This document shows, in pieces, positions 40,474-63,951 of a DNA stretch of 64,000 bases (positions are counted from its first letter, which is position 1; the number at the start of each line of letters is the position of its first letter). Origin of the DNA: an uncultured Halobacteriales archaeon (GTDB lineage: Archaea; Halobacteriota; Halobacteria; Halobacteriales; Hikarchaeaceae). The stretch covers positions 1,009-65,008 of the forward strand of contig CAZKPC010000003.1 of NCBI GenBank assembly GCA_964554565.1. The letters are read 5' to 3'. A model generated the notes under the pieces. That model had not been told where the DNA came from and did no database searches. It saw only the letters and a program-made list of their open reading frames with translations. Both the position numbers and the translations under genes were made by a program.

Positions 40474-42912
40474 CTACTCCGCCTCGTCCAAGGCGGCCTT
40501 GATCTTGTCCGCCGTGAAGGGGAGGCTGTGGATCCGGACGCCGACGGCATCGCGAATGGCGTTGCCGAGGGCCGGCGCGACGCCGTTCGTCGGCAGTTCC
40601 GCGATGGATTTGGCGCCGAACGGGCCGGTCGGCTCGTGGGTTTCGACCACGATGGTCTCCATCGGCGGGGTATCAGCCGTCGTCGGCATGCCGTACTGCC
40701 GGAAGCCCAGGACCTCCGGGTTCCCGTCGTCGTCGAAACTCAGCGTGCCGCTGGTGGCGTACTCGAGGCTCATGTGCTCGCCACCCTCGATCTGGCCTTC
40801 GACCAACGGCGGGTTGATCGCCACTCCACAGTCCGCCGCGAAGACCAGCTTGTTGATGTCGTACTCGCCGGTCTCCTCGTTCACCGTCACGTCGACGAAC
40901 TGCGCGCCGAACGGCGGGGGGCTCTCGTCGGTGCTGTGGTGGCTCGCGCCCATCACTTGCTCGCGCTCGTCGCCCCCGTAGATCGACTCCATGCCGATCT
41001 CCTCGAGGGTGACTTCCTCGCCGGTGACCTCGCTGTACACGACGCCCTCGCCGGTCTCGAGGTCCTCGGCCGGCTCGTCGAGCAGCTTCCCGGCCCAGTA
41101 GAGGAGCCGATCCTTCGCGTCGAGGGCGGTTTCCTTGACCGCGCGGCCCGAAATATAGGTCGTCGAGGAGGCGTAGGCGCCGTAATCGAACGGCGTTTCG
41201 TCGGTATCGGAGGACTTGACCACGATGTCCTCGGGGTCGCAGCCGAGCACCTCCGAGGCGATCTGACTGAACATCGTGTCGTTCCCCGACCCCGTGTCGA
41301 CGCCCCCGACCTGCAGGATGAACGAGCCGTCCTCGTTCATCTTGATGTGGGCCGCGCCGAGTTCGTCGCCCTGCACGCCGCTGCCCTGGGCGGTCAGCGC
41401 GAGGCCGATCCCGCGATGGAGGTGGGGCTCCTCGGGCTGTTCGACGTCTTCGTATCCGATGGCCTCGGCCCCGCGATCGATGCATTCCCCCATGCCACAG
41501 GACCGGATCCGGCGGGCGCCGTCGCCCTCGCCGAGGATGTCCGAGATCCAGTCGAGGTCGCCGACCTGGACGTGGTTCTTCCGCCGGAACTCGATCGGGT
41601 CCATGTCGAGCCGCCGGGCGACCTCGTCCATGTGGCACTCCACCGCGAAGTGGCCCTGGGGCGCGCCGTACCCGCGCTGGGCCGCCGCGATCGGCAGGTT
41701 CGTGTGGACGATGTCCGCCGTGAAGCGGACGTTCTCCACCCGGGGATAGATCGGGAGCGGCTTGGTCCCGACGTTCCCCGCCACCGTCATCCCGTGGGGG
41801 CCATAGGCGCCGGTGTTCGAGAGCGCGTAGAGGTCCATGGCCTGCAGCTCGCCGTCCTCCGACACCGCGGATTTCATCGTGACCGACATCGGGTGCCGGT
41901 TCCGCATGGCGTGGAACTCCTCCTTCCGGCTGACTTCGAGCTTGACCGGCTGCCCGGCCGCCAGATGGAGGGCGAACGTGATCGGCTCGATCACCATCGC
42001 CTGCTTGCCGCCGAAGCCGGCACCGATACGGGGTTTGGTGACCCGGATATCCCGCACCGGGATGTCGAAGAGGTGTGAGAGCTGCCGGCGGGTGTGGTTG
42101 GGGACCTGCGTGGAGGAGATGAAGACGTGCCGGTTGTCCTCGTCCGTGTAGGCGATCGTCGTGTGTGGTTCCGGGATACAGTGGTTCTGGTAGGGCGTCT
42201 CCCACTCGGTCTCGAGAGTCAGCTCGTCGTCCGCGGCATCCAGTGCCGATTCCACGTCGCCCAACTCGCCCTCGAAGTGGGACTCGCGGTTCCGTGTGTA
42301 GTCCGCTCCGGACTGCTTGTTCTCCACGTCGTCCGGTTCGAACAGCTGCGGGGCGTCCGGATCCATCGCCTCGTGGTAGTCGAGGACCGGCTCGAGCTCC
42401 TCGTATTCGACCGTGATCTTCCGGGCGGCCTTGTCCGCGATCGACTTGTTCTCCGCGGCCACCGCCGCGATCGGGTCGCCGACGAACCGCACGTGCTCCC
42501 GGAGCGTCTTCATGTCCCACGGGCTGGGTTCGGGATACGACTGACCGGCCGACGTGTAGACGCTATCGGGCACCTCGTCCGACCACGGCGTGATCACGGC
42601 GTGGACGCCGTCCATCGCCTCGGCCTCGCTCGTGTCGATCGACTTCACGTACCCGTGGGCGATGTCGCTGCGGATGACCTTCCCCTCGAGCAGCTCCGGG
42701 AAGTGGACGCGGAAGTCCGCGGTGAACTTCGCCTCGCCGGTGACGAGCTTGCGCCCGTCGTCCTTCTCGACGTCCTTGGTGATGTTCTCGCGGTCGCTGG
42801 CGGCCTTCCGGTTGCCCTCCGGCTCGTCCCATTCGATCGGGAACTTCTCGAGGGCCTCGTCCTGGCCGGGCAACACGTCGATCTCCGGCTCGGTGTCCTC
42901 GGGCTGGCTCAC
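40474..42912 (-). CDS. Molybdenum hydroxylase (xanthine dehydrogenase family) Mo-binding subunit, XdhD-like
   Basis: GQSYPEPSP, VRFVGD, STQVP, GAGFGGK, RGYGAPQ, GQIEGG, GPFGAKSIAE; GTG start with GGAGGT SD. Confidence 0.92.
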   Translation of the reverse strand: MSQPEDTEPEIDVLPGQDEALEKFPIEWDEPEGNRKAASDRENITKDVEKDDGRKLVTGEAKFTADFRVHFPELLEGKVIRSDIAHGYVKSIDTSEAEAMDGVHAVITPWSDEVPDSVYTSAGQSYPEPSPWDMKTLREHVRFVGDPIAAVAAENKSIADKAARKITVEYEELEPVLDYHEAMDPDAPQLFEPDDVENKQSGADYTRNRESHFEGELGDVESALDAADDELTLETEWETPYQNHCIPEPHTTIAYTDEDNRHVFISSTQVPNHTRRQLSHLFDIPVRDIRVTKPRIGAGFGGKQAMVIEPITFALHLAAGQPVKLEVSRKEEFHAMRNRHPMSVTMKSAVSEDGELQAMDLYALSNTGAYGPHGMTVAGNVGTKPLPIYPRVENVRFTADIVHTNLPIAAAQRGYGAPQGHFAVECHMDEVARRLDMDPIEFRRKNHVQVGDLDWISDILGEGDGARRIRSCGMGECIDRGAEAIGYEDVEQPEEPHLHRGIGLALTAQGSGVQGDELGAAHIKMNEDGSFILQVGGVDTGSGNDTMFSQIASEVLGCDPEDIVVKSSDTDETPFDYGAYASSTTYISGRAVKETALDAKDRLLYWAGKLLDEPAEDLETGEGVVYSEVTGEEVTLEEIGMESIYGGDEREQVMGASHHSTDESPPPFGAQFVDVTVNEETGEYDINKLVFAADCGVAINPPLVEGQIEGGEHMSLEYATSGTLSFDDDGNPEVLGFRQYGMPTTADTPPMETIVVETHEPTGPFGAKSIAELPTNGVAPALGNAIRDAVGVRIHSLPFTADKIKAALDEAE

Positions 42913-43439
42913 GCCCGTTCACCTCCGGACTCGCGGGATACGAGATCGAGCCGGGTGCCGCCGTCAGCCGCCATCGCGTCGGCCTGCATGCGGTCGGCCG
43001 AGTCGTGGACGGCCTCGAGGATCTTCTTGTACCCGGTGCACCGACACAAGTTATCCGAAAGCGCCTCACGGACCTCTGAATCCGACGGATCGGGGTTCTC
43101 CTCGAGCAGGGCTTTCGTGCTCATGATGAAGCCCGGCGTGCAGAACCCACATTGGAGCGCCGTCTGGTCCAGGAAGGCCTGCTGGATCGGGTGCAAGTCG
43201 TCCTGGGTACCCAACCCTTCGATGGTCTCGACGGACGCCCCCTCCACCCGATTCGCGGGCAGCACACAGGACTGGCGAGGTTCGCCGTCGACCTGCACCA
43301 TGCACATCCCACAAGCGCCGGTATCGCAGCCGCGCTTGGCACCGGTATACCCGTTGCGCCGAAGCACGTCGAGCAGCAGATCCGTCTTCGCCACCTCGAA
43401 GGTTTCCGGCTCGCCGTTGAGTTCAAACTGGAGTTCCAT
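42909..43439 (-). CDS. Molybdenum hydroxylase 2x[2Fe-2S] subunit
   Basis: GCDTGACGMC...SC, QCGFC, NLCRCTGY. Confidence 0.95.
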   Translation of the reverse strand: MELQFELNGEPETFEVAKTDLLLDVLRRNGYTGAKRGCDTGACGMCMVQVDGEPRQSCVLPANRVEGASVETIEGLGTQDDLHPIQQAFLDQTALQCGFCTPGFIMSTKALLEENPDPSDSEVREALSDNLCRCTGYKKILEAVHDSADRMQADAMAADGGTRLDLVSRESGGERA

Positions 43440-45184: not shown

Positions 45185-45556
45185 ATGACGGACCTGGGGG
45201 TCGTCCTCACGGGCGGGCCATTCGACAGCCAGCGGTGGCGCACGGCCTACGAGCTGGGCCGCGCGGCGCTGGACGCCGACCGACAGGTGAGCTACTTCCA
45301 TTACCTGGACGGCGTCCTCGTGCCGGTGCTGGACCAGCGCCTCCCGGACTGCAGCGACGCCAGCCTGTACGACGAGATGCCGACGGAGAAGTTCCAGCAG
45401 CTGATCGCGGACGGGGCCGAGGTCGTCTGCTGTGGGCTCTGTGTCGACGCCAGGGGGATCGAGGCGGCGACCGATTACCCCGCGGGCGTCGAGGTCGGGT
45501 TGTTGCCCGACCTGGCTGACCTGCTCGGGACGGCCGATCGGGTGGTATCACTATGA
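45185..45556 (+). CDS. DsrE/TusD-like sulfur(selenium)-relay protein
   Basis: T.GP, F.Y.DGV, CCGLC..ARG, L..L...ADRVV. Confidence 0.88.
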   Translation: MTDLGVVLTGGPFDSQRWRTAYELGRAALDADRQVSYFHYLDGVLVPVLDQRLPDCSDASLYDEMPTEKFQQLIADGAEVVCCGLCVDARGIEAATDYPAGVEVGLLPDLADLLGTADRVVSL

Positions 45557-45903
45557 AACGGGACGTCCTCGTCATGGTGACCCGGCCGCCGGGTCGCGTC
45601 CACGTCGCTGAGGGCCTCCGGGCAGCCCGCGGGGTGGCAGCCGGGTTCGATCGCCACGACGTCACCGTGTTGTTCGCGGAGGACGGCGTTCACAGCGCCA
45701 GAGCCGCGGTCGACCGCGACGCGCTCAACCTGCCCGATCACATCGCCGATTTGCGGGCCGAGGACGGCCGCATGGTCGCCGACGGCCGGGCCCTGCAGGA
45801 GCGGGCGATCGACCGGGAAGCGGTGGCCGACGACATCACCGTGCTGGACGGCGGGGAGACGACCGCGCTCGTCCGGCGGGCCGATCACACGCTCGATTTC
45901 TGA
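45553..45903 (+). CDS. DsrF/TusC-like protein
   Basis: PPG...EGLR, LF.EDGV, L.ER.I; ATGA overlap with dsrE. Confidence 0.82.
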   Translation: MKRDVLVMVTRPPGRVHVAEGLRAARGVAAGFDRHDVTVLFAEDGVHSARAAVDRDALNLPDHIADLRAEDGRMVADGRALQERAIDREAVADDITVLDGGETTALVRRADHTLDF

Positions 45904-45905
45904 CG

Positions 45906-46151
45906 ATGCTCTACCTCATCGACAAACCGTTGGCGGATCTCGGCCTCCGGGCGGCGAGTGATGACCCCGACGCCCGCGTGGCCCTCCTGCAGGACGGGGT
46001 CCTGCTCGACCCGGATCTTGACGTCCCCACCTTCGCCGTGCAGCGGGACGCCGCCGTCCGGGGGATCGATCTCCCCGAGGCCGTGGAACCGGTCTCCTAT
46101 GACCGACTCGTCGAACTGCTGTTCGAGCACGAGGTGGCCAGCTTCGTATGA
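45906..46151 (+). CDS. DsrH/TusB-like protein
   Basis: MLYLI, LLQDGV, D...RG, YD.LVEL. Confidence 0.85.
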   Translation: MLYLIDKPLADLGLRAASDDPDARVALLQDGVLLDPDLDVPTFAVQRDAAVRGIDLPEAVEPVSYDRLVELLFEHEVASFV

Positions 46152-47797
46152 CCCTGTTCGAGCGCGCTGACGAACTGGTCGACCGCGGCGAGCCGGCCGC
46201 CATGCTGACGGTCGTCGGCAAGGACGGGAGCGCGCCGCGGGAAGTCGGGACCCGGATGCTCGTGACGGCCCAGGACGAGTTCGGCACGATCGGCGGCGGC
46301 AGCGTGGAAGGCCTCGCCATCGAGGAGGCCCGCGACGTCCTCGAAGGGCAGGCCGAGCCGGGCGTGCGCAACTACGAGCTCCGACCGGGTGGGAACACCG
46401 GGATGGTCTGCGGGGGGTCGATGGACGTGTTCATCGACCGTCTGCGCGGGAAGCGACACGTGTATGTTGCGGGCGGCGGCCACATCGCCGCCGAGCTGGC
46501 CCCGCTGGCCGCCCGGATGGGATACGCGGTCACGTTGATCGACGACCGGGCGGAGTACGCCGCCGAGGCCCGCTTCCCCGAGGCCACCCGAGTCATCCAC
46601 GGCGACTACGGCGAGGCCCTGGCTGAGCTCCCGATCACGTCCGAGTCCGCCGTCGTCGTCGCGACCCGGAGCGGCACCTTCGATACCGCCGCCGTCGGCG
46701 CCGCGCTCGAAGGTGGCGCCGGCTACGTCGGGCTGGTCGCCAGCGACACCAAGGCCGACCGGGTACTGGACAACCTCGCCGAGGACGGCTTCGGCCGGGA
46801 CCGCCTGGTCGACGTCCGAGCGCCGGTCGGCCTGGACCTCGGCGGGGGCGGGCCCGAGGACGTGGCCCTCTCCGTCCTCGCCGAACTCCACGCTGACCGG
46901 CACGACGCGTCCGGGAGCCGGCTGACGCGGCTCGACCTCGACGAGCTCGTCGTGGTCCGGGGCGGCGGCGATCTCGCCAGCGGGGTCGTGTACCGGCTCC
47001 ACCAGGCGGGGTTCCCGGTCGCGGTCCTCGAGGTCGAGCAGCCGACGGCGGTCCGACGGGCGGTGGCGTTCGCCGAGGCGGTGTACGAGGACGAAGTGAC
47101 GGTCGAGGGCGTCGGGGCCCGACGTGCGGAGGACGTCGATGCGGCCGTGGAGATGCTCGAGGCCGGCGAGGTCCCGGTGCTCGTGGACCCGGAGGCCGCG
47201 GCAGTCGATGCCTTGGAGCCCGGCGTGCTGGTCGACGCGGTGATGGCCAAGGGTAAACGGGATACCGGCACCCGCCGTGAGCAGGCGGACGTGGTCATCG
47301 GGTTGGGGCCGGGATTCGAGGCCGTCGCGGACGAGCCGGGATCGGTGGGCGCCGGGGGTGATACCACGGCGGCCGAGGCCGCCGATGGCGGGCCGGTTCC
47401 GGTCGACGCCGTCGTTGAAACCGATCGCGGCCACGAACTCGGCCGGGTGTTCTACGAGGGCACGGCCAGCCCCTATGACGGGACGCCGGGCGAGCGAGCG
47501 GGCCACACGCTGGACCGCGTCCTGTACGCCGAATCCGCGGGCGAGTGGTCGCCGACGGTGGAGATCGGCGAGCTGGTCGAGACGGGCGACGTGGTCGGCC
47601 ACGTCGGCGACGATCCCGTCGCGGCCGAGATCGACGGGCTGGTCCGGGGACTCGTCCGCGAAGGGCTGCAGGTCGAGGCCGGCACGAAGCTCGGTGACAT
47701 CGACCCCCGTGGCGACGCCGTGGATCCGACGAAGGTCTCCGACAAGGCGCTCTCGCTGGGCGGCGGGGTCCTTGAGGCGGTGCTGCGCCTCCGGTAA
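46148..47797 (+). CDS. yqeB: XdhC-YqeB fusion (Mo-hydroxylase maturation / selenium-cofactor protein)
   Basis: N-half GSAPRE.G, GTIGGG, CGG, APVGLDLG; C-half VRGGGDLASG, RRAVAF, ETDRGH.LG, GDIDPR, SDKA..LGGGVLEA. Confidence 0.9.
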   Translation: MTLFERADELVDRGEPAAMLTVVGKDGSAPREVGTRMLVTAQDEFGTIGGGSVEGLAIEEARDVLEGQAEPGVRNYELRPGGNTGMVCGGSMDVFIDRLRGKRHVYVAGGGHIAAELAPLAARMGYAVTLIDDRAEYAAEARFPEATRVIHGDYGEALAELPITSESAVVVATRSGTFDTAAVGAALEGGAGYVGLVASDTKADRVLDNLAEDGFGRDRLVDVRAPVGLDLGGGGPEDVALSVLAELHADRHDASGSRLTRLDLDELVVVRGGGDLASGVVYRLHQAGFPVAVLEVEQPTAVRRAVAFAEAVYEDEVTVEGVGARRAEDVDAAVEMLEAGEVPVLVDPEAAAVDALEPGVLVDAVMAKGKRDTGTRREQADVVIGLGPGFEAVADEPGSVGAGGDTTAAEAADGGPVPVDAVVETDRGHELGRVFYEGTASPYDGTPGERAGHTLDRVLYAESAGEWSPTVEIGELVETGDVVGHVGDDPVAAEIDGLVRGLVREGLQVEAGTKLGDIDPRGDAVDPTKVSDKALSLGGGVLEAVLRLR

Positions 47798-47825
47798 CGA
47801 AGGGCTCGACGCGCCGGCCGGCCCA

Positions 47826-48869
47826 TCAATCCGGGCGCGGCGCCGTGCCCAGGGAAACTTGGTCGACCGCCGGCTCGGCCAGCCGAGCGCCGGCCCCCTC
47901 GGTCACGCGGCCGACCGCTCGATAGAAGACGTCCGCCTCATCCAGCGCCGCTTCGAGGGCCGCCGTTCGCTCATCCTCAACCGCCACGAGCAGCCCGCCG
48001 CTCGTTTCAGCACTCTCTCCGGCGACCAGTCCATAGCCGAACAGGTCTGAGAGCGACGGCGTGCCCTCGATGACCGGGAGCTCCGTGAGTTCGATGCCGA
48101 CGCCGCTGCGGGCGGCGATCGTGCTTGCCTCGCCGAGCAGGCCGAACCCGGTGACGTCGGTGGCGGCCGTGGCGAGCTCCCGGACGGCCAAGGCTGCTGC
48201 CCGGTTCGGGTGGACCATCCACCGGTACGCCTCCTGACCGACCGCCCCGATATCGGGATCGGTCGCGTCGGCGACGGTTTCGGCGAACTCGCCATCGCTG
48301 ACGCGGAGCGCTCCCATGGCGGGCTGCGTGCCCAACGGCTTGGTCAGGTAGAGGTGATCCCCCGGACCGGCACCGGTGGTCGTCAGCAGCCGGTCCCGGG
48401 GAGCCGTGGCGGTGATCGCCCCGCCCGCCAGCGGCCACGGGTTAAGGATCGTGTGCCCCCCGGCGATGACGCCGTCCATCCCTCTGAGGGCCGTCAGCAT
48501 CCCCGTGAGGATCTCGGCGGCCACCGTGGTCAGATCCCGGGGGAGGCCCAAGACCGCCAGACAGGCCAAGTCGTCCACGGCGCCCGTCGCGAACGCGTCG
48601 CTGGCGGCGTTGACGGCGGCCACGCGGCCGAAGTCGGCCGGGTCATCGACCACGGGGGTAAACACGTCGACGGTCGACACCAGGGCCCGCGAATCGCCGA
48701 GCGGTTGGGCGGCCGCGTCCTCCCCGACGCCGAACAACAACCCGGGCTGCTCCCCATCGACCCCAGCCTCGGCGAGCAGCGACTCGAGATCGCCCCGACC
48801 GACCTTGCACGAACAGCCGTGGAGTTCGGCGTGGTCGGTGAGCGCCGGCTCCGGCCCGTCGTCCGCCAT
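47826..48869 (-). CDS. selD: Selenophosphate synthetase (Cys form)
   Basis: HGCSCK, EDAA, TVD.FTP.VDDP..FG, A.NA.SD, GGHT, LTKPLG, TDVTGFGLLG, ETSGGLL. Confidence 0.95.
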   Translation of the reverse strand: MADDGPEPALTDHAELHGCSCKVGRGDLESLLAEAGVDGEQPGLLFGVGEDAAAQPLGDSRALVSTVDVFTPVVDDPADFGRVAAVNAASDAFATGAVDDLACLAVLGLPRDLTTVAAEILTGMLTALRGMDGVIAGGHTILNPWPLAGGAITATAPRDRLLTTTGAGPGDHLYLTKPLGTQPAMGALRVSDGEFAETVADATDPDIGAVGQEAYRWMVHPNRAAALAVRELATAATDVTGFGLLGEASTIAARSGVGIELTELPVIEGTPSLSDLFGYGLVAGESAETSGGLLVAVEDERTAALEAALDEADVFYRAVGRVTEGAGARLAEPAVDQVSLGTAPRPD

Positions 48870-48870
48870 G

Positions 48871-49116
48871 CTAGGCGTCCGAAAGCGTCGCCTGCTCGGT
48901 TACCGTGATGTGCAGCTCGAAGGCGCCGTCCCCGTGATTGGGACCGTCAGTGACCTCGTAGCCGTGGCGGTCACAGGTCCGCCGGAGGTTCCGTTCGGCC
49001 GGCGGGTAATCGCCCCGAACCAGCAGCTCGTCCCCGGGGCTCAACTCCGCCAGCCGATCCCGGACGACGAGCGCCGGCCGCGGACAGACCTCCCCCGTGA
49101 CGTCCACGTGCTCCAT
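48871..49116 (-). CDS. tusA: TusA/SirA sulfur(selenium) carrier
   Basis: DVTGEVCPRP (CPxP) and L..GD.L.V..D; ends 1 nt before the selD start. Confidence 0.9.
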   Translation of the reverse strand: MEHVDVTGEVCPRPALVVRDRLAELSPGDELLVRGDYPPAERNLRRTCDRHGYEVTDGPNHGDGAFELHITVTEQATLSDA

Positions 49117-49199
49117 GGCCGTCAGTACTGGATGGGAGCCCATAACGGTAGCGTCGACCGCCGCGGAACGCTCAAATCGCGTCGGGGGCTTGACCCAGC

Positions 49200-49970
49200 A
49201 TGGAGCTCGCCGACCAGCTCGAGGTGGGGGATCGGGCGCTGGTGGCGTTCGTCGGGGCCGGCGGCAAGAAGACGGCGATGGACCAACTCGTCGAGGAGGG
49301 GACCGACCGCGGACTGGCCGTCGGCTATACCACGACGACCCACGTCCCGCCGCCCGACCTCCCGCTCGCGTTGTCCGACCCAGAAACCCTCGAACGAGGG
49401 CTCGAGGAGCACGAGCCGCCGGTGGCATTCGCCCGGGAGGAGGTCGAGCAGCCGGAACGCGCCGACCGCAAGCTCCGTGGGTTCGAGCCATCGGTCGTCG
49501 ATTGGACCTATCGCACGCGGCGATTCGACTGGCTGCTGGTGAAAGCAGACGGGGCCCGACGGCGGGGGTTCAAAGCGCCGGGGCCCGACGAACCGGCGCT
49601 GCCGCTGGCCGCGACCCACGTGGTGCCGGTCGTCAGCGTACAGGTCGTCGGAAAGCCGCTGGCGCCGGAACACGTCCATCGCGTGGACCAGGTCGCGGCC
49701 ATCACGGGACTCGAGCCGGGCGATCCGATCGACGCCGCCGCCGTTGGCACTGTCCTCGGGAGCCCCGAGGGCGGCCTGAAGGGCGTCCCGGAGACGGCGA
49801 CGGCCACCTATCTGGTGAACCAGGCCGACACGCCGGCGCTTGCCGGCACCGCCCGGACAGTGCTCGAGACCGCCTTCGAGGTGGCCGGGCGCCCAGTCCG
49901 GGGCGCCGTGAGTTCCTTCGAGGCCGATCGGCTGGACGTTTTCGAGCCCGGAGGTCGCCGGGGAGCCTGA
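49200..49970 (+). CDS. yqeC: Selenium cofactor biosynthesis protein YqeC
   Basis: VGAGGKK, TTTTH, KADGARRR.FKAP..DEP, NQAD. Confidence 0.9.
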   Translation: MELADQLEVGDRALVAFVGAGGKKTAMDQLVEEGTDRGLAVGYTTTTHVPPPDLPLALSDPETLERGLEEHEPPVAFAREEVEQPERADRKLRGFEPSVVDWTYRTRRFDWLLVKADGARRRGFKAPGPDEPALPLAATHVVPVVSVQVVGKPLAPEHVHRVDQVAAITGLEPGDPIDAAAVGTVLGSPEGGLKGVPETATATYLVNQADTPALAGTARTVLETAFEVAGRPVRGAVSSFEADRLDVFEPGGRRGA

Positions 49971-61840: not shown

Positions 61841-62860
61841 ATGAGCAGTGACACTGAGCGGGTCGGGCTGTATATGCAGGACAAGCACCCCATCCGCGAG
61901 AACATGGAGTACGTGAAATACGCCGAGTCGCAGGGGTTCGACGAGGTCTGGCAGGCGGAGTCCCGCCTGGCACGGGACGCGATCACGCCCTGTGCGGCCT
62001 ACGCCGCGGTGACCGACGAGATCAAAGTCGGGACCGGTGTGATCAACAACTGGACCCGGAACGCCGCGCTGATCGCCCAGACGATGTCCACGATGGAGGA
62101 GCTGGCCGGGCCGAACCGGATCCTCTGTGGCATCGGCGCCTGGTGGGAACCGATCGCCTCGAAGGTCGGGGTCAACCGCGAACGGCCGCTGCGCGCGATG
62201 CGGGAGACGGTGGAGGTCGTGAAGCAGCTGCTCGACATGGAGAACGTGACCTATGACGGCGACTTCGTCAACGTCGAGGACATCGAGCTGGACGTCGTCC
62301 ACGGGGATACCGGGCCCCGGACGGTCCCGGTCTACGTCGGCGGGACCGGGTTCACCATGCTCGAGCTCACCGGCGAGTTCGCCGACGGCGCCCTCCTGAA
62401 CTACCTCGTCAGCCCGGAGTACAACGAGAAGGCGCTGGAGGCCCTGGAGACGGGGGCCGAACGGGCCGGTCGCACCCTCGAGGACATTGACCGGCCTCAG
62501 CTCGTCGTCTGTTCGATGGATCACGACGCCGACAAGGCGCTCGACAACGCCCGGGAGCTCATCACGCAGTACCTCGGCCAGCAGCCCCACATCATGAAGG
62601 CCTCCGGCGTGAGTCAGGACCTCATCGACGACGTCGGCGAGGCGATCGGCGGGTGGCCGGCCGGCGAGGACGACATCCAGAAGGGAATGGACCTCATCCC
62701 CGACGAGGTCGTCCGCAAGCTCACGGCCTCCGGGACGCCCGAGCAATGCCGCGAGAAGGTCCGTGAATACTACGAAACCGGCTGCCAGTGCCCGATCCTC
62801 TACCCGCTCGGCGATGACGTCGAGCTCATGATCGACGAGTTCGCCGACGGCTACCTGTAA
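61841..62860 (+). CDS. Mer-like luciferase-family (LLM) oxidoreductase, probably F420-dependent
   Basis: [31 protein letters not shown]...GEFADG, GTPE. Confidence 0.85.
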
Positions 62861-62913: not shown

Positions 62914-63951
62914 ATGACTAGTCCGACCTGGGACAAGAGCCGCACTGCCAGCGGCGACATCTTCGCCGCCATCGGCGAGACGCCCCTGCTGGAGATCGAC
63001 ACCGATTCCGACGCTGACGTCTACGGGAAACTGGAGTTTCTGAACCCGAGCGGCTCCATCAAGGACCGCATCTACCGCGCGATGATCACCGCCGCCATCG
63101 AGCGCGGCGACCTCGAACCCGGAATGGAGATCCTGGAGTGCTCCACCGGCAATGCCGGCATCGCGTGCACGTTCGTCGGGAGCCAGCTCGGCTACGACGT
63201 GACGATCGTGATGCCCGAGGGCATGAGCGAGGAGCGCAAGAAGGTCATCCGCGCCTACGGCGGCGAGTTGATCGAAACGCCGGGCGGTGAAAGCGACGTC
63301 GACCTCTCGATGGAACGGGTCGAAGAGAAGATCGAGGAAGAGCCCGGGCAGTACTGGTTCCCGAACCAGTTCGCGAACCCCGACAACCCGCGGGCCCACG
63401 CGGAGACGACGGGCCCGGAGATCCTCGAACAGCTCGGCGGCGCACCTGACGCGTTCGTGGCGGGGCAAGGGACCGGCGGGACGCTCACTGGTGTCGGCCG
63501 GACGCTGCGGGAGGAGCGCTCGGACGTCCAGCTGTTCGCCCTCGAGCCCGCCGAGGCGCCGATCCTCTCGGCGCGCGAGTGGGGCAGCCACGAGATCGAG
63601 GGGATCGGCGACGGCTTCGTCCCCCAGAACCTCGACCCCGAGCTGATGGACGGCGTGGTCACGGTGACCTCGGAGGACGCCATCGACCGCTCCCGCTGGC
63701 TCGCCGACGAGGAGGGGGTCTTCTGTGGCATCTCCTCGGGCGCGAACATCGAGGGCGCCGTGAAGGTCGCCGAGGCCCAGGGACTGGACTCGATCGCGAC
63801 CATCATCTGCGATACCGGCATGCGCTACTTCTCCACGAAGCTGTTCGAGGACGAATACGAGATCGACGTCCCCGACCGCGATCACCCGCTCGACGACCGG
63901 TCGATCCGCGTCCTCGAGGAGTACCAGGACACCTGGACGATCCTCGACTAA
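62914..63951 (+). CDS. Cysteine-synthase-family (fold type II) PLP enzyme
   Basis: KLEFLNPSGSIKDR, STGNAG, NQF, GTGGT, IEGIG, GISSGA. Confidence 0.9.
   Translation: MTSPTWDKSRTASGDIFAAIGETPLLEIDTDSDADVYGKLEFLNPSGSIKDRIYRAMITAAIERGDLEPGMEILECSTGNAGIACTFVGSQLGYDVTIVMPEGMSEERKKVIRAYGGELIETPGGESDVDLSMERVEEKIEEEPGQYWFPNQFANPDNPRAHAETTGPEILEQLGGAPDAFVAGQGTGGTLTGVGRTLREERSDVQLFALEPAEAPILSAREWGSHEIEGIGDGFVPQNLDPELMDGVVTVTSEDAIDRSRWLADEEGVFCGISSGANIEGAVKVAEAQGLDSIATIICDTGMRYFSTKLFEDEYEIDVPDRDHPLDDRSIRVLEEYQDTWTILD

Follow-up and report, generated by a model that had tools for sequence, protein, structure and literature searches.

How does selenium enter molybdenum hydroxylases? The route is stated to be unknown (PMC11448449), and among the proteins concerned genetic evidence backs SelD and YqeB only. 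A stretch of 64,000 nucleotides (the window) from an uncultured Halobacteriales archaeon of the Hikarchaeaceae (GenBank assembly GCA_964554565.1, contig CAZKPC010000003.1, positions 1,009 to 65,008) raises this question with a cluster of seven genes, in which dsrE, dsrF and dsrH (the triad) stand together with an xdhC-yqeB fusion, selD, tusA and yqeC (Table 1). SelD, YqeB and YqeC, whose presence in one genome is the criterion for the selenium-cofactor trait, that is, maturation of selenium-dependent molybdenum hydroxylases (PMC9312934), were all found above NCBIfam cut-offs. The original prediction, made from the window alone, saw in the triad a complete DsrEFH (TusDCB) trimer that had been repurposed, with TusA, to carry selenium or sulfur to XdhC-YqeB for loading of the molybdenum centre. 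Judged from sequence and distribution, the triad is a strictly conserved feature and a variant of the known selenium-cofactor system, and with TusA it is probably a selenium carrier, whichever the direction of delivery.

The triad was followed through 400 other Halobacteria genomes, accepting E values up to 1e-40 for SelD and up to 1e-8 for DsrE orthologues. selD was detected in 28 of them, belonging to 5 families and 10 genera, and a DsrE orthologue in 29, namely the same 28 genomes, where it was near full length (one copy being cut by a contig end), and G155, which holds a remnant. No full-length dsrE orthologue occurred in the 372 selD-negative genomes, while more distant DsrE-family genes were present in other haloarchaea according to the control search. 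All seven genes lay within the fetched region in 28 of 28 selD genomes, and their order was identical to that of the window in 27, so that the linkage on which the original prediction was built is not unique to this genome; in relative G020 the triad had been relocated about 3 kb past yqeC, away from xdhC-yqeB. The gene upstream of dsrE varied among the 28 relatives (molybdenum subunit in 22, adenine deaminase in 2, and permease, divergent FeS subunit, unidentified gene and contig end in 1 each), and mocA was present in only 23 of 28 regions, so the triad is retained more strictly than the genes around it. Among public plasmids, 15 carried this dsrE and the same 15 carried this selD, although these records probably overlap with the genome sample. 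Among their hosts are the cultured species Haloarcula hispanica, which is genetically tractable, and H. marismortui.

Two observations stand beside this survey. The G155 remnant (L096:79-2468; G155:C102) consists of a permease, an adenine deaminase, dsrE cut off after codon 32 and a molybdenum subunit matched only from residue 83, in a genome with no SelD above the cut-off, and looks like a block deletion. A second tusA-like gene was located a few kb from the module in two loci (L053:17962-18237 and L059:14206-14421).

Gene coupling in the window was as originally described: dsrE and dsrF share an ATGA overlap, dsrF and dsrH are separated by 2 nt, dsrH and xdhC-yqeB share another ATGA overlap, and 1 nt separates selD from tusA. 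Both 4-nt overlaps, dsrE/dsrF and dsrH/xdhC, recurred in 27 of 28 relatives each, and a tusA-selD spacing of 1-3 nt in 22 of 28. The seven genes form three units rather than a single operon, with dsrEFH-xdhC/yqeB converging on tusA-selD and yqeC divergent from tusA. A scan of the locus with a sigma-70 promoter and terminator model, which is ill-suited to archaea, gave no match. The triad is present in one copy in this genome (the assembly is 83% complete), and close homologues are assigned to Halobacteria.

Conserved cysteines in the triad were confined to DsrE. The CCGLC and CPRP motifs named in the original prediction are present, as C82-C83-G-L-C86 of DsrE and C11-P-R-P of TusA. DsrE C83 aligned with C78 of E. 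coli TusD (hhalign probability 96%), the established persulfide site of the DsrE/TusD family (PMC3397948); C83 and C86 were invariant in 29 of 29 haloarchaeal copies, and C82 and C56 were each kept in 28. In the same alignment DsrF had no conserved cysteine, and neither had DsrH, whose best cysteine column was filled in at most 2 of 29 copies. C11 and C48 of TusA were invariant (29/29). The AF2 model of DsrE (pLDDT 93.9) matched 1JX7 (YchN), 2HY5_A (DsrE) and 2D1P_A (TusD) by Foldseek with TM scores of 0.81-0.84, YchN being the top fold match. DsrE was also the best conserved of the seven proteins, with a median identity to the window protein of 79%, compared with 65% for SelD and 70% for XdhC-YqeB. 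Taken together, DsrE is likely the chalcogen-carrying subunit of the triad.

The triad is not an orthologue of TusDCB or DsrEFH, which corrects the original prediction. Its scores fell far under the NCBIfam equivalog cut-offs for TusD (TIGR03012, 19.5 against 89.25 bits), TusC (TIGR03010, 26.2 against 94.15) and TusB (TIGR03011, 25.2 against 49.2), and it formed a separate clade. In a concatenated E+F+H tree (61 rows, 317 columns, LG+G4, rooted on E. coli TusDCB only), for which 12 of 29 haloarchaeal sets were used and 32 of 80 non-haloarchaeal loci were dropped for want of a recoverable E+F+H set, haloarchaeal triads formed a single clade (UFBoot 100), sister (UFBoot 98) to a mostly bacterial group and far from E. 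coli TusDCB. Sister modules came from Chloroflexota, Desulfobacterota, Planctomycetota, Nitrospinota and one Hodarchaeota locus. The nearest non-haloarchaeal relatives had been collected by a profile search after which their loci were fetched, and the Desulfobacteraceae-weighted alignment biases this sample; counts refer to 37 genome loci scoring at least 75 bits against the haloarchaeal profile, 22 of them at least 10 kb long.

These sister loci share with the haloarchaeal triad the E-F-H order, mostly the CxxC motif, and a tusA (31 of 37 loci). Their neighbours were Hdr-like, GcvH, lipoate-ligase and radical-SAM genes in 27 of 37 loci and ThiS, ThiF, CysM and JAB genes in 15; GcvH-like proteins stood beside the triad in 24. 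Of 12 sister-type genomes tested, 7 gave no DsrC match, and 3 of 5 tested had yqeB elsewhere in the genome. In sHdr-LbpA systems, sulfur is delivered by related sets of DsrE and TusA (PMC11094781). Since the triad is sister to DsrEFH-TusA modules of bacterial Hdr-like, lipoate and CysM clusters, recruitment from a sulfur relay is likely, and the tree would be read most simply as one event in which a DsrC-independent sulfur relay was recruited to the selenium locus of haloarchaea.

Other DsrE loci met in these searches deserve mention in their own right. Loci L109-L143 and L153 hold a widespread uncharacterised dsrEFH-tusA module with a membrane Hdr-like protein (CCG, 4Fe-4S), GcvH-like proteins, lipoate ligase and radical SAM enzymes, often with ThiS/ThiF/CysM/JAB added, in Chloroflexota, Desulfobacterota, Planctomycetota and Nitrospinota. 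In 8 distant dsrE loci (L167, L171, L175, L176, L180, L182, L186 and L188), from Nitrospirota and Desulfobacterales, the codon matching C83 is an in-frame TGA, each gene being followed by a dsrF-like gene and at least 5 also by a dsrH-like gene, which makes them candidate selenocysteine DsrEFH triads. The TGA agrees with the UxxC DsrE-like selenoproteins already known (PMC9312934) and marks the C83 position as catalytic, though it is not a demonstration of selenium carriage. In the metagenome loci L265 (7155-10988) and L263, xdhC and tusA adjoin dsrE, and neither selD nor yqeB is present there; this may be an independent link to XdhC. The triad of L265 is reordered to dsrE-H-F.

Is the carried element selenium or sulfur? 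XdhC, which serves as chaperone of the molybdenum cofactor (Moco) in general, was present in 163 of the 400 Halobacteria, and 135 of these had neither selD nor a full-length dsrE orthologue. Because the triad is confined to selD genomes and these 135 XdhC-only genomes do without it, it appears to follow selenium use rather than ordinary sulfido-molybdenum cofactor (sulfido-Moco) maturation, as far as distribution tells. SepSecS (TIGR03531) and archaeal SelU (TIGR04569) were found in none of five module genomes tested, this genome included, in agreement with Lin et al. (PMC5322559), and SelD is thus an orphan without other known use. tRNA-Sec was likewise absent among the tRNAs found in this 83%-complete genome. 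The original prediction had noted the lack of tusE/dsrC and mnmA in the window, and this extended further: DsrC/TusE was found in 0 of 28 relatives and nowhere in this genome by a search that finds E. coli's, and the sole match to the MnmA family was a weak one of 72 positions within a 670-aa frame.

Several ordinary sulfur roles were rejected or disfavoured on these data. tRNA thiolation was rejected because TusE was not found, MnmA gave only a weak partial match and most of the haloarchaea searched lack the triad. Dissimilatory sulfur oxidation was rejected on the failure to find DsrC (the search did not extend to DsrAB), and general supply of sulfido-Moco is disfavoured by the 135 XdhC haloarchaea without selD and triad.

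For the direction of delivery, we slightly favour upstream transfer to SelD over hand-off to XdhC-YqeB; the triad may, with nearly even chances, be a selenium carrier that feeds SelD and in this corresponds to a bacterial YedF in split form. In this scheme a selenium source would load Cys11 of TusA, selenium would move to Cys83 of DsrE within a putative DsrE/F/H oligomer, and Cys86 would resolve the adduct and release selenide to SelD, in which C19 and C21 were invariant. XdhC-YqeB, with YqeC and MocA, would then use selenophosphate to place a selenido ligand on Moco for the adjacent xanthine-oxidase-family enzyme. Upstream delivery is supported by the YedF motifs in register, the lack of a YedF over the cut-off in 9 of 9 module haloarchaea, the occurrence of YedF in organisms that have no YqeB/YqeC, the tusA-selD coupling, the order in L135, induction of TusAD in Methanococcus maripaludis, and the separation in G020. 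E. faecalis YedF adjoins selD and a selenocysteine (Sec) lyase gene, and its CPIP and CGAC motifs align with the window TusA and with DsrE C83/C86; TusA matched the N-terminal domain of this YedF with an E value of 5.6e-10. Haft and Self placed YedF "probably prior to selenophosphate synthesis" (PMC2276186). In the Chloroflexota locus L135, dsrEFH, tusA and selD are consecutive and yqeB is absent from the locus, and in M. maripaludis TusAD transcripts rose by 4.5-4.6 log2 upon selenium depletion (PMC11097638).

A number of results weigh against a selenium carrier that feeds SelD. The gene that dsrH overlaps in 27 of 28 relatives is xdhC-yqeB and not selD, which fits downstream delivery better, and the genome of L135 has yqeB elsewhere. 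Similarity between DsrE and the DsrE domain of YedF is weak and at family level (hhalign probability 74%, 50 columns), and a tblastn search with the E. faecalis Sec lyase gave no match in this 83%-complete genome. Sulfur-type clusters (Hdr-like/GcvH/lipoate or ThiF/CysM genes) accounted for 32 of 37 sister loci, selD for 2 of 37, and yqeB or yqeC for none. The 28 selD genomes are not independent, 16 being of one genus and the module being plasmid-borne in 15 public records, and co-occurrence counts are therefore inflated by kinship and block inheritance (no P value was attached). Finally, two archaea of the same phylum outside Halobacteria have yqeB-xdhC loci without the triad, so it is not a general requirement, and the selD region of one of them gave no tusA or dsrE match.

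The opposite direction, which is possible but doubtful, would take selenium from SelD-made selenophosphate through TusA and DsrE to XdhC-YqeB, which would replace TusE/DsrC with XdhC Cys88 as candidate acceptor, and on to Moco. It draws on the 4-nt overlap of dsrH with xdhC-yqeB in 27 of 28 relatives which, with the tusA-selD coupling, matches the order TusA, TusBCD, acceptor (PMC3397948), and on the failure to find DsrC in any of 28. C88 of the XdhC part was invariant in the haloarchaeal alignment, and a conserved XdhC cysteine is the proposed persulfide site (PMC2997495), although R. capsulatus NifS4 sulfurates XdhC-bound Moco directly, without a relay (PMC2997495, PMC13653126). The YqeB part of the window protein is free of cysteine, and one cysteine present in 121 of 123 non-haloarchaeal YqeB occurred in 0 of 29 haloarchaeal copies, a weak hint that DsrE compensates for it; however, the 123 sequences were mostly close relatives of one query (6 without the anchor motif having been dropped), and YqeB of E. 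coli and Collinsella also lacks that cysteine. Another cysteine, seven residues downstream of the lost position, was present in 26 of 29 haloarchaeal copies. The biotin-carrier likeness of the C-terminal part of YqeB (TM about 0.8 on the target), set beside the GcvH-like neighbours of sister triads in 24 of 37 loci, also favours a hand-off to XdhC-YqeB. The YqeB model (window 46934-47794) had no full-length match in the PDB, only partial biotin-carrier and Rossmann matches, and no lysine was conserved in the alignment at the hairpin position expected for a carrier lysine. Against this direction, four bacterial yqeB regions (E. faecalis, Collinsella, Peptoclostridium and E. coli) show no such triad in their annotation, and the triad stands apart from xdhC-yqeB in G020. 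Complex prediction of DsrE, DsrF and DsrH with XdhC-YqeB gave a score of 0.00, in which only the XdhC-YqeB chain was scored and controls were not folded, and is evidence neither way. Separately, residues 134-156 of YqeB (window about 47330-47400) form a 23-residue Ala/Gly/Asp-rich insertion of low model confidence, partly shared with L047 only.

The selenium relay of the original prediction thus stands in part. The triad belongs to the SelD/YqeB/YqeC module (28 of 28 selD-positive genomes against none at full length in 372 selD-negative ones), the catalytic cysteine is kept, and selenium is favoured over sulfur, but XdhC-YqeB as acceptor was not established, and delivery to SelD fits at least as well. 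That a recruited bacterial DsrEFH-TusA relay has become a dedicated perselenide relay, which bypasses DsrC/TusE and brings SelD-activated selenium directly to XdhC-YqeB, is possible but doubtful; if true, it would be the first defined protein-bound route to a Mo-Se ligand.

Less probable still is a sulfur or redox role, whether as sulfur supply for the enzyme's Moco, as a C83/C86 thiol reductant, or as a scavenger of stray selenide or sulfide that keeps the molybdenum site selective. The nearest relatives of the triad do reside in sulfur-relay clusters, the CxxC motif and the top fold match to YchN are compatible with redox chemistry, and Lin et al. read the CGXC of YedF as redox or detoxifying (PMC5322559), but 135 XdhC haloarchaea dispense with the triad and it is confined to selD-positive genomes. 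It is very improbable that the triad is a passenger that entered once with a purine-catabolic island and was inherited as a block, serving another island enzyme or none: the single haloarchaeal clade does argue for one acquisition, the module is often plasmid-borne and the one loss seen, in G155, resembles a block deletion, but the triad was kept in 28 of 28 genomes while flanks vary and 5 of 28 regions lack mocA, it stayed within about 3 kb of yqeC after the G020 rearrangement, and DsrE is the most conserved protein of the module.

The likely client of the module is the xanthine-oxidase-family molybdenum hydroxylase at 40474-43439. All fetched regions but one, a 9-kb contig, contained a homologue (27 of 28), and in 22 of 28 relatives the gene immediately upstream of dsrE is a close homologue; no FAD subunit gene was found beside the window genes for the molybdenum and 2Fe-2S subunits. 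These genes lie in a purine-catabolic island (40474-64000) that also has permease and ABC transporter genes and in which YgeY, carbamate kinase and adenine deaminase scored over NCBIfam cut-offs. It resembles the SelD-dependent 2,8-dioxopurine pathway of gut bacteria (bioRxiv 2025.04.24.650524). In the genome, a full YgfK match was not found, nor was YgeX using a partial query, and an F420-type LLM oxidoreductase (61841-62860) and two PLP enzymes (62914-63951; C3:64984-66225) might substitute for them. A carbamoyltransferase scored under the YgeW cut-off and an SsnA-like hydrolase, also under its cut-off, lies just outside the window, the island extending to G000:C3:64984-67604. Carbamate kinase, OTC-like and LLM genes flank the triad in G020 too. 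A second YqeC over the cut-off was located on another contig (G000:C16:33620-34534; L285:5621-6535), and mocA (G000:C25:12511-13071) stands with a second XdhC and two molybdenum hydroxylase genes, not beside the yqeC of the window.

Table 1. Genes of the selenium-cofactor locus and of the adjacent hydroxylase, with positions in the 64,000-nucleotide window.
Feature	Position	Strand	Profile matches
dsrE, DsrE/TusD-like, 123 aa	45185-45556	+	PF02635 68.4 bits (cut-off 22.7)
dsrF, DsrF/TusC-like, 116 aa	45553-45903	+	PF02635 37.5 bits (cut-off 22.7); hhalign TusC probability 95%
dsrH, DsrH/TusB-like, 81 aa	45906-46151	+	PF04077 23.3 bits, just below cut-off 24.4; hhalign TusB probability 84%
xdhC-yqeB fusion, Moco chaperone (XdhC) and selenium-cofactor marker (YqeB), 549 aa	46148-47797	+	TIGR03309 334.9 bits (cut-off 220); PF02625, PF13478
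selD, selenophosphate synthetase, Cys form (C19), orphan	47826-48869	-	TIGR00476 246.5 bits (cut-off 125)
tusA, TusA/SirA-family carrier, 81 aa	48871-49116	-	PF01206 59.3 bits
yqeC, selenium-cofactor marker, 256 aa	49200-49970	+	TIGR03172 168.4 bits (cut-off 73); Pfam YqeC 109.5
xanthine-oxidase-family molybdenum hydroxylase, 2Fe-2S subunit	42909-43439	-	Pfam Fer2_2
xanthine-oxidase-family molybdenum hydroxylase, molybdenum subunit	40474-42912	-	Pfam MoCoBD_1/2; best NCBIfam XdhA 650 bits, under cut-off 780

The locus itself is not new. It is the haloarchaeal orphan-SelD selenium-cofactor locus published in 2008 by Haft and Self (PMC2276186) and by Zhang et al. (PMC2432076), whose lists comprise selD, XdhC-YqeB, YqeC, MocA, the hydroxylases and a SirA/TusA gene. 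The triad, which occupies the space from yqeB to the hydroxylase, is unnamed in the available text of both papers: "dsr" and "tus" have no occurrence in that of PMC2276186, and "dsr" occurs once in that of PMC2432076, concerning the YedF domain of E. faecalis. Only in clostridia has the mature enzyme been shown to contain labile selenium that depends on SelD and YqeB (PMC11448449; bioRxiv 2025.04.24.650524), selenium channelling via SclA, SelD, YqeB and YqeC has been proposed in E. faecalis (bioRxiv 2020.02.07.939272), and a DsrE-like gene was reported in another selenium-linked cluster (bioRxiv 2022.07.06.499078). A 2026 review describes direct NifS4-to-XdhC sulfuration, and YqeB, TusA and DsrE are absent from its available text (PMC13653126). 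A literature search, with most subscription journals and some supplements outside its scope, found no link of a DsrEFH triad to the selenium-cofactor trait, so the triad is apparently undiscussed in the literature searched, which is not proof. The surprise is moderate, since the locus, TusA beside selD and the DsrE domain in YedF were all known before.

The near-invariant seven-gene module is nevertheless a minimal candidate parts list, which now includes four small cysteine carriers or scaffolds, and the triad reduces the question of how the selenium ligand is made to a small number of cysteines that can be tested, and could explain the role of YedF in bacteria. If the carrier role is true, a DsrEFH-type complex would be working without DsrC/TusE.

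Compared with known systems, the closest match is plasmid pNG700 of H. marismortui (NC_006395.1), which has the same order of molybdenum hydroxylases, two "DsrE family" genes, a "hypothetical protein", yqeB, selD, tusA and yqeC, and whose DsrE is 79.7% identical to that of the window; unlike that locus, the window has a permease upstream of dsrE and mocA on another contig. With E. coli TusBCD (2D1P) and A. vinosum DsrEFH (2HY5) the triad shares adjacent E-F-H (D-C-B) paralogues, the DsrE fold, the catalytic cysteine and a nearby TusA, but it differs from them in scoring below equivalog cut-offs, in its separate clade, in the extra C86 (CxxC), in having no DsrC/TusE found and in its linkage to selD/yqeB; Cys20 of A. 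vinosum DsrH, a feature of the Dsr type only (PMC3397948), has no counterpart in haloarchaeal DsrH. With YedF (TIGR03527), a TusA-DsrE fusion also found in organisms without YqeB/YqeC (PMC2432076), it shares both domains, the CPxP and CGxC motifs and adjacency to selD. YedF is one protein of about 195 aa, whereas here the two domains are encoded by separate genes on opposite strands with F and H subunits added; the best YedF score in this genome was 24.7 bits (cut-off 110), and 9 of 9 module haloarchaea had none over the cut-off. By the tests applied the triad is thus a member of neither family, but in its working it would resemble both a TusA-DsrEFH relay and a split YedF.

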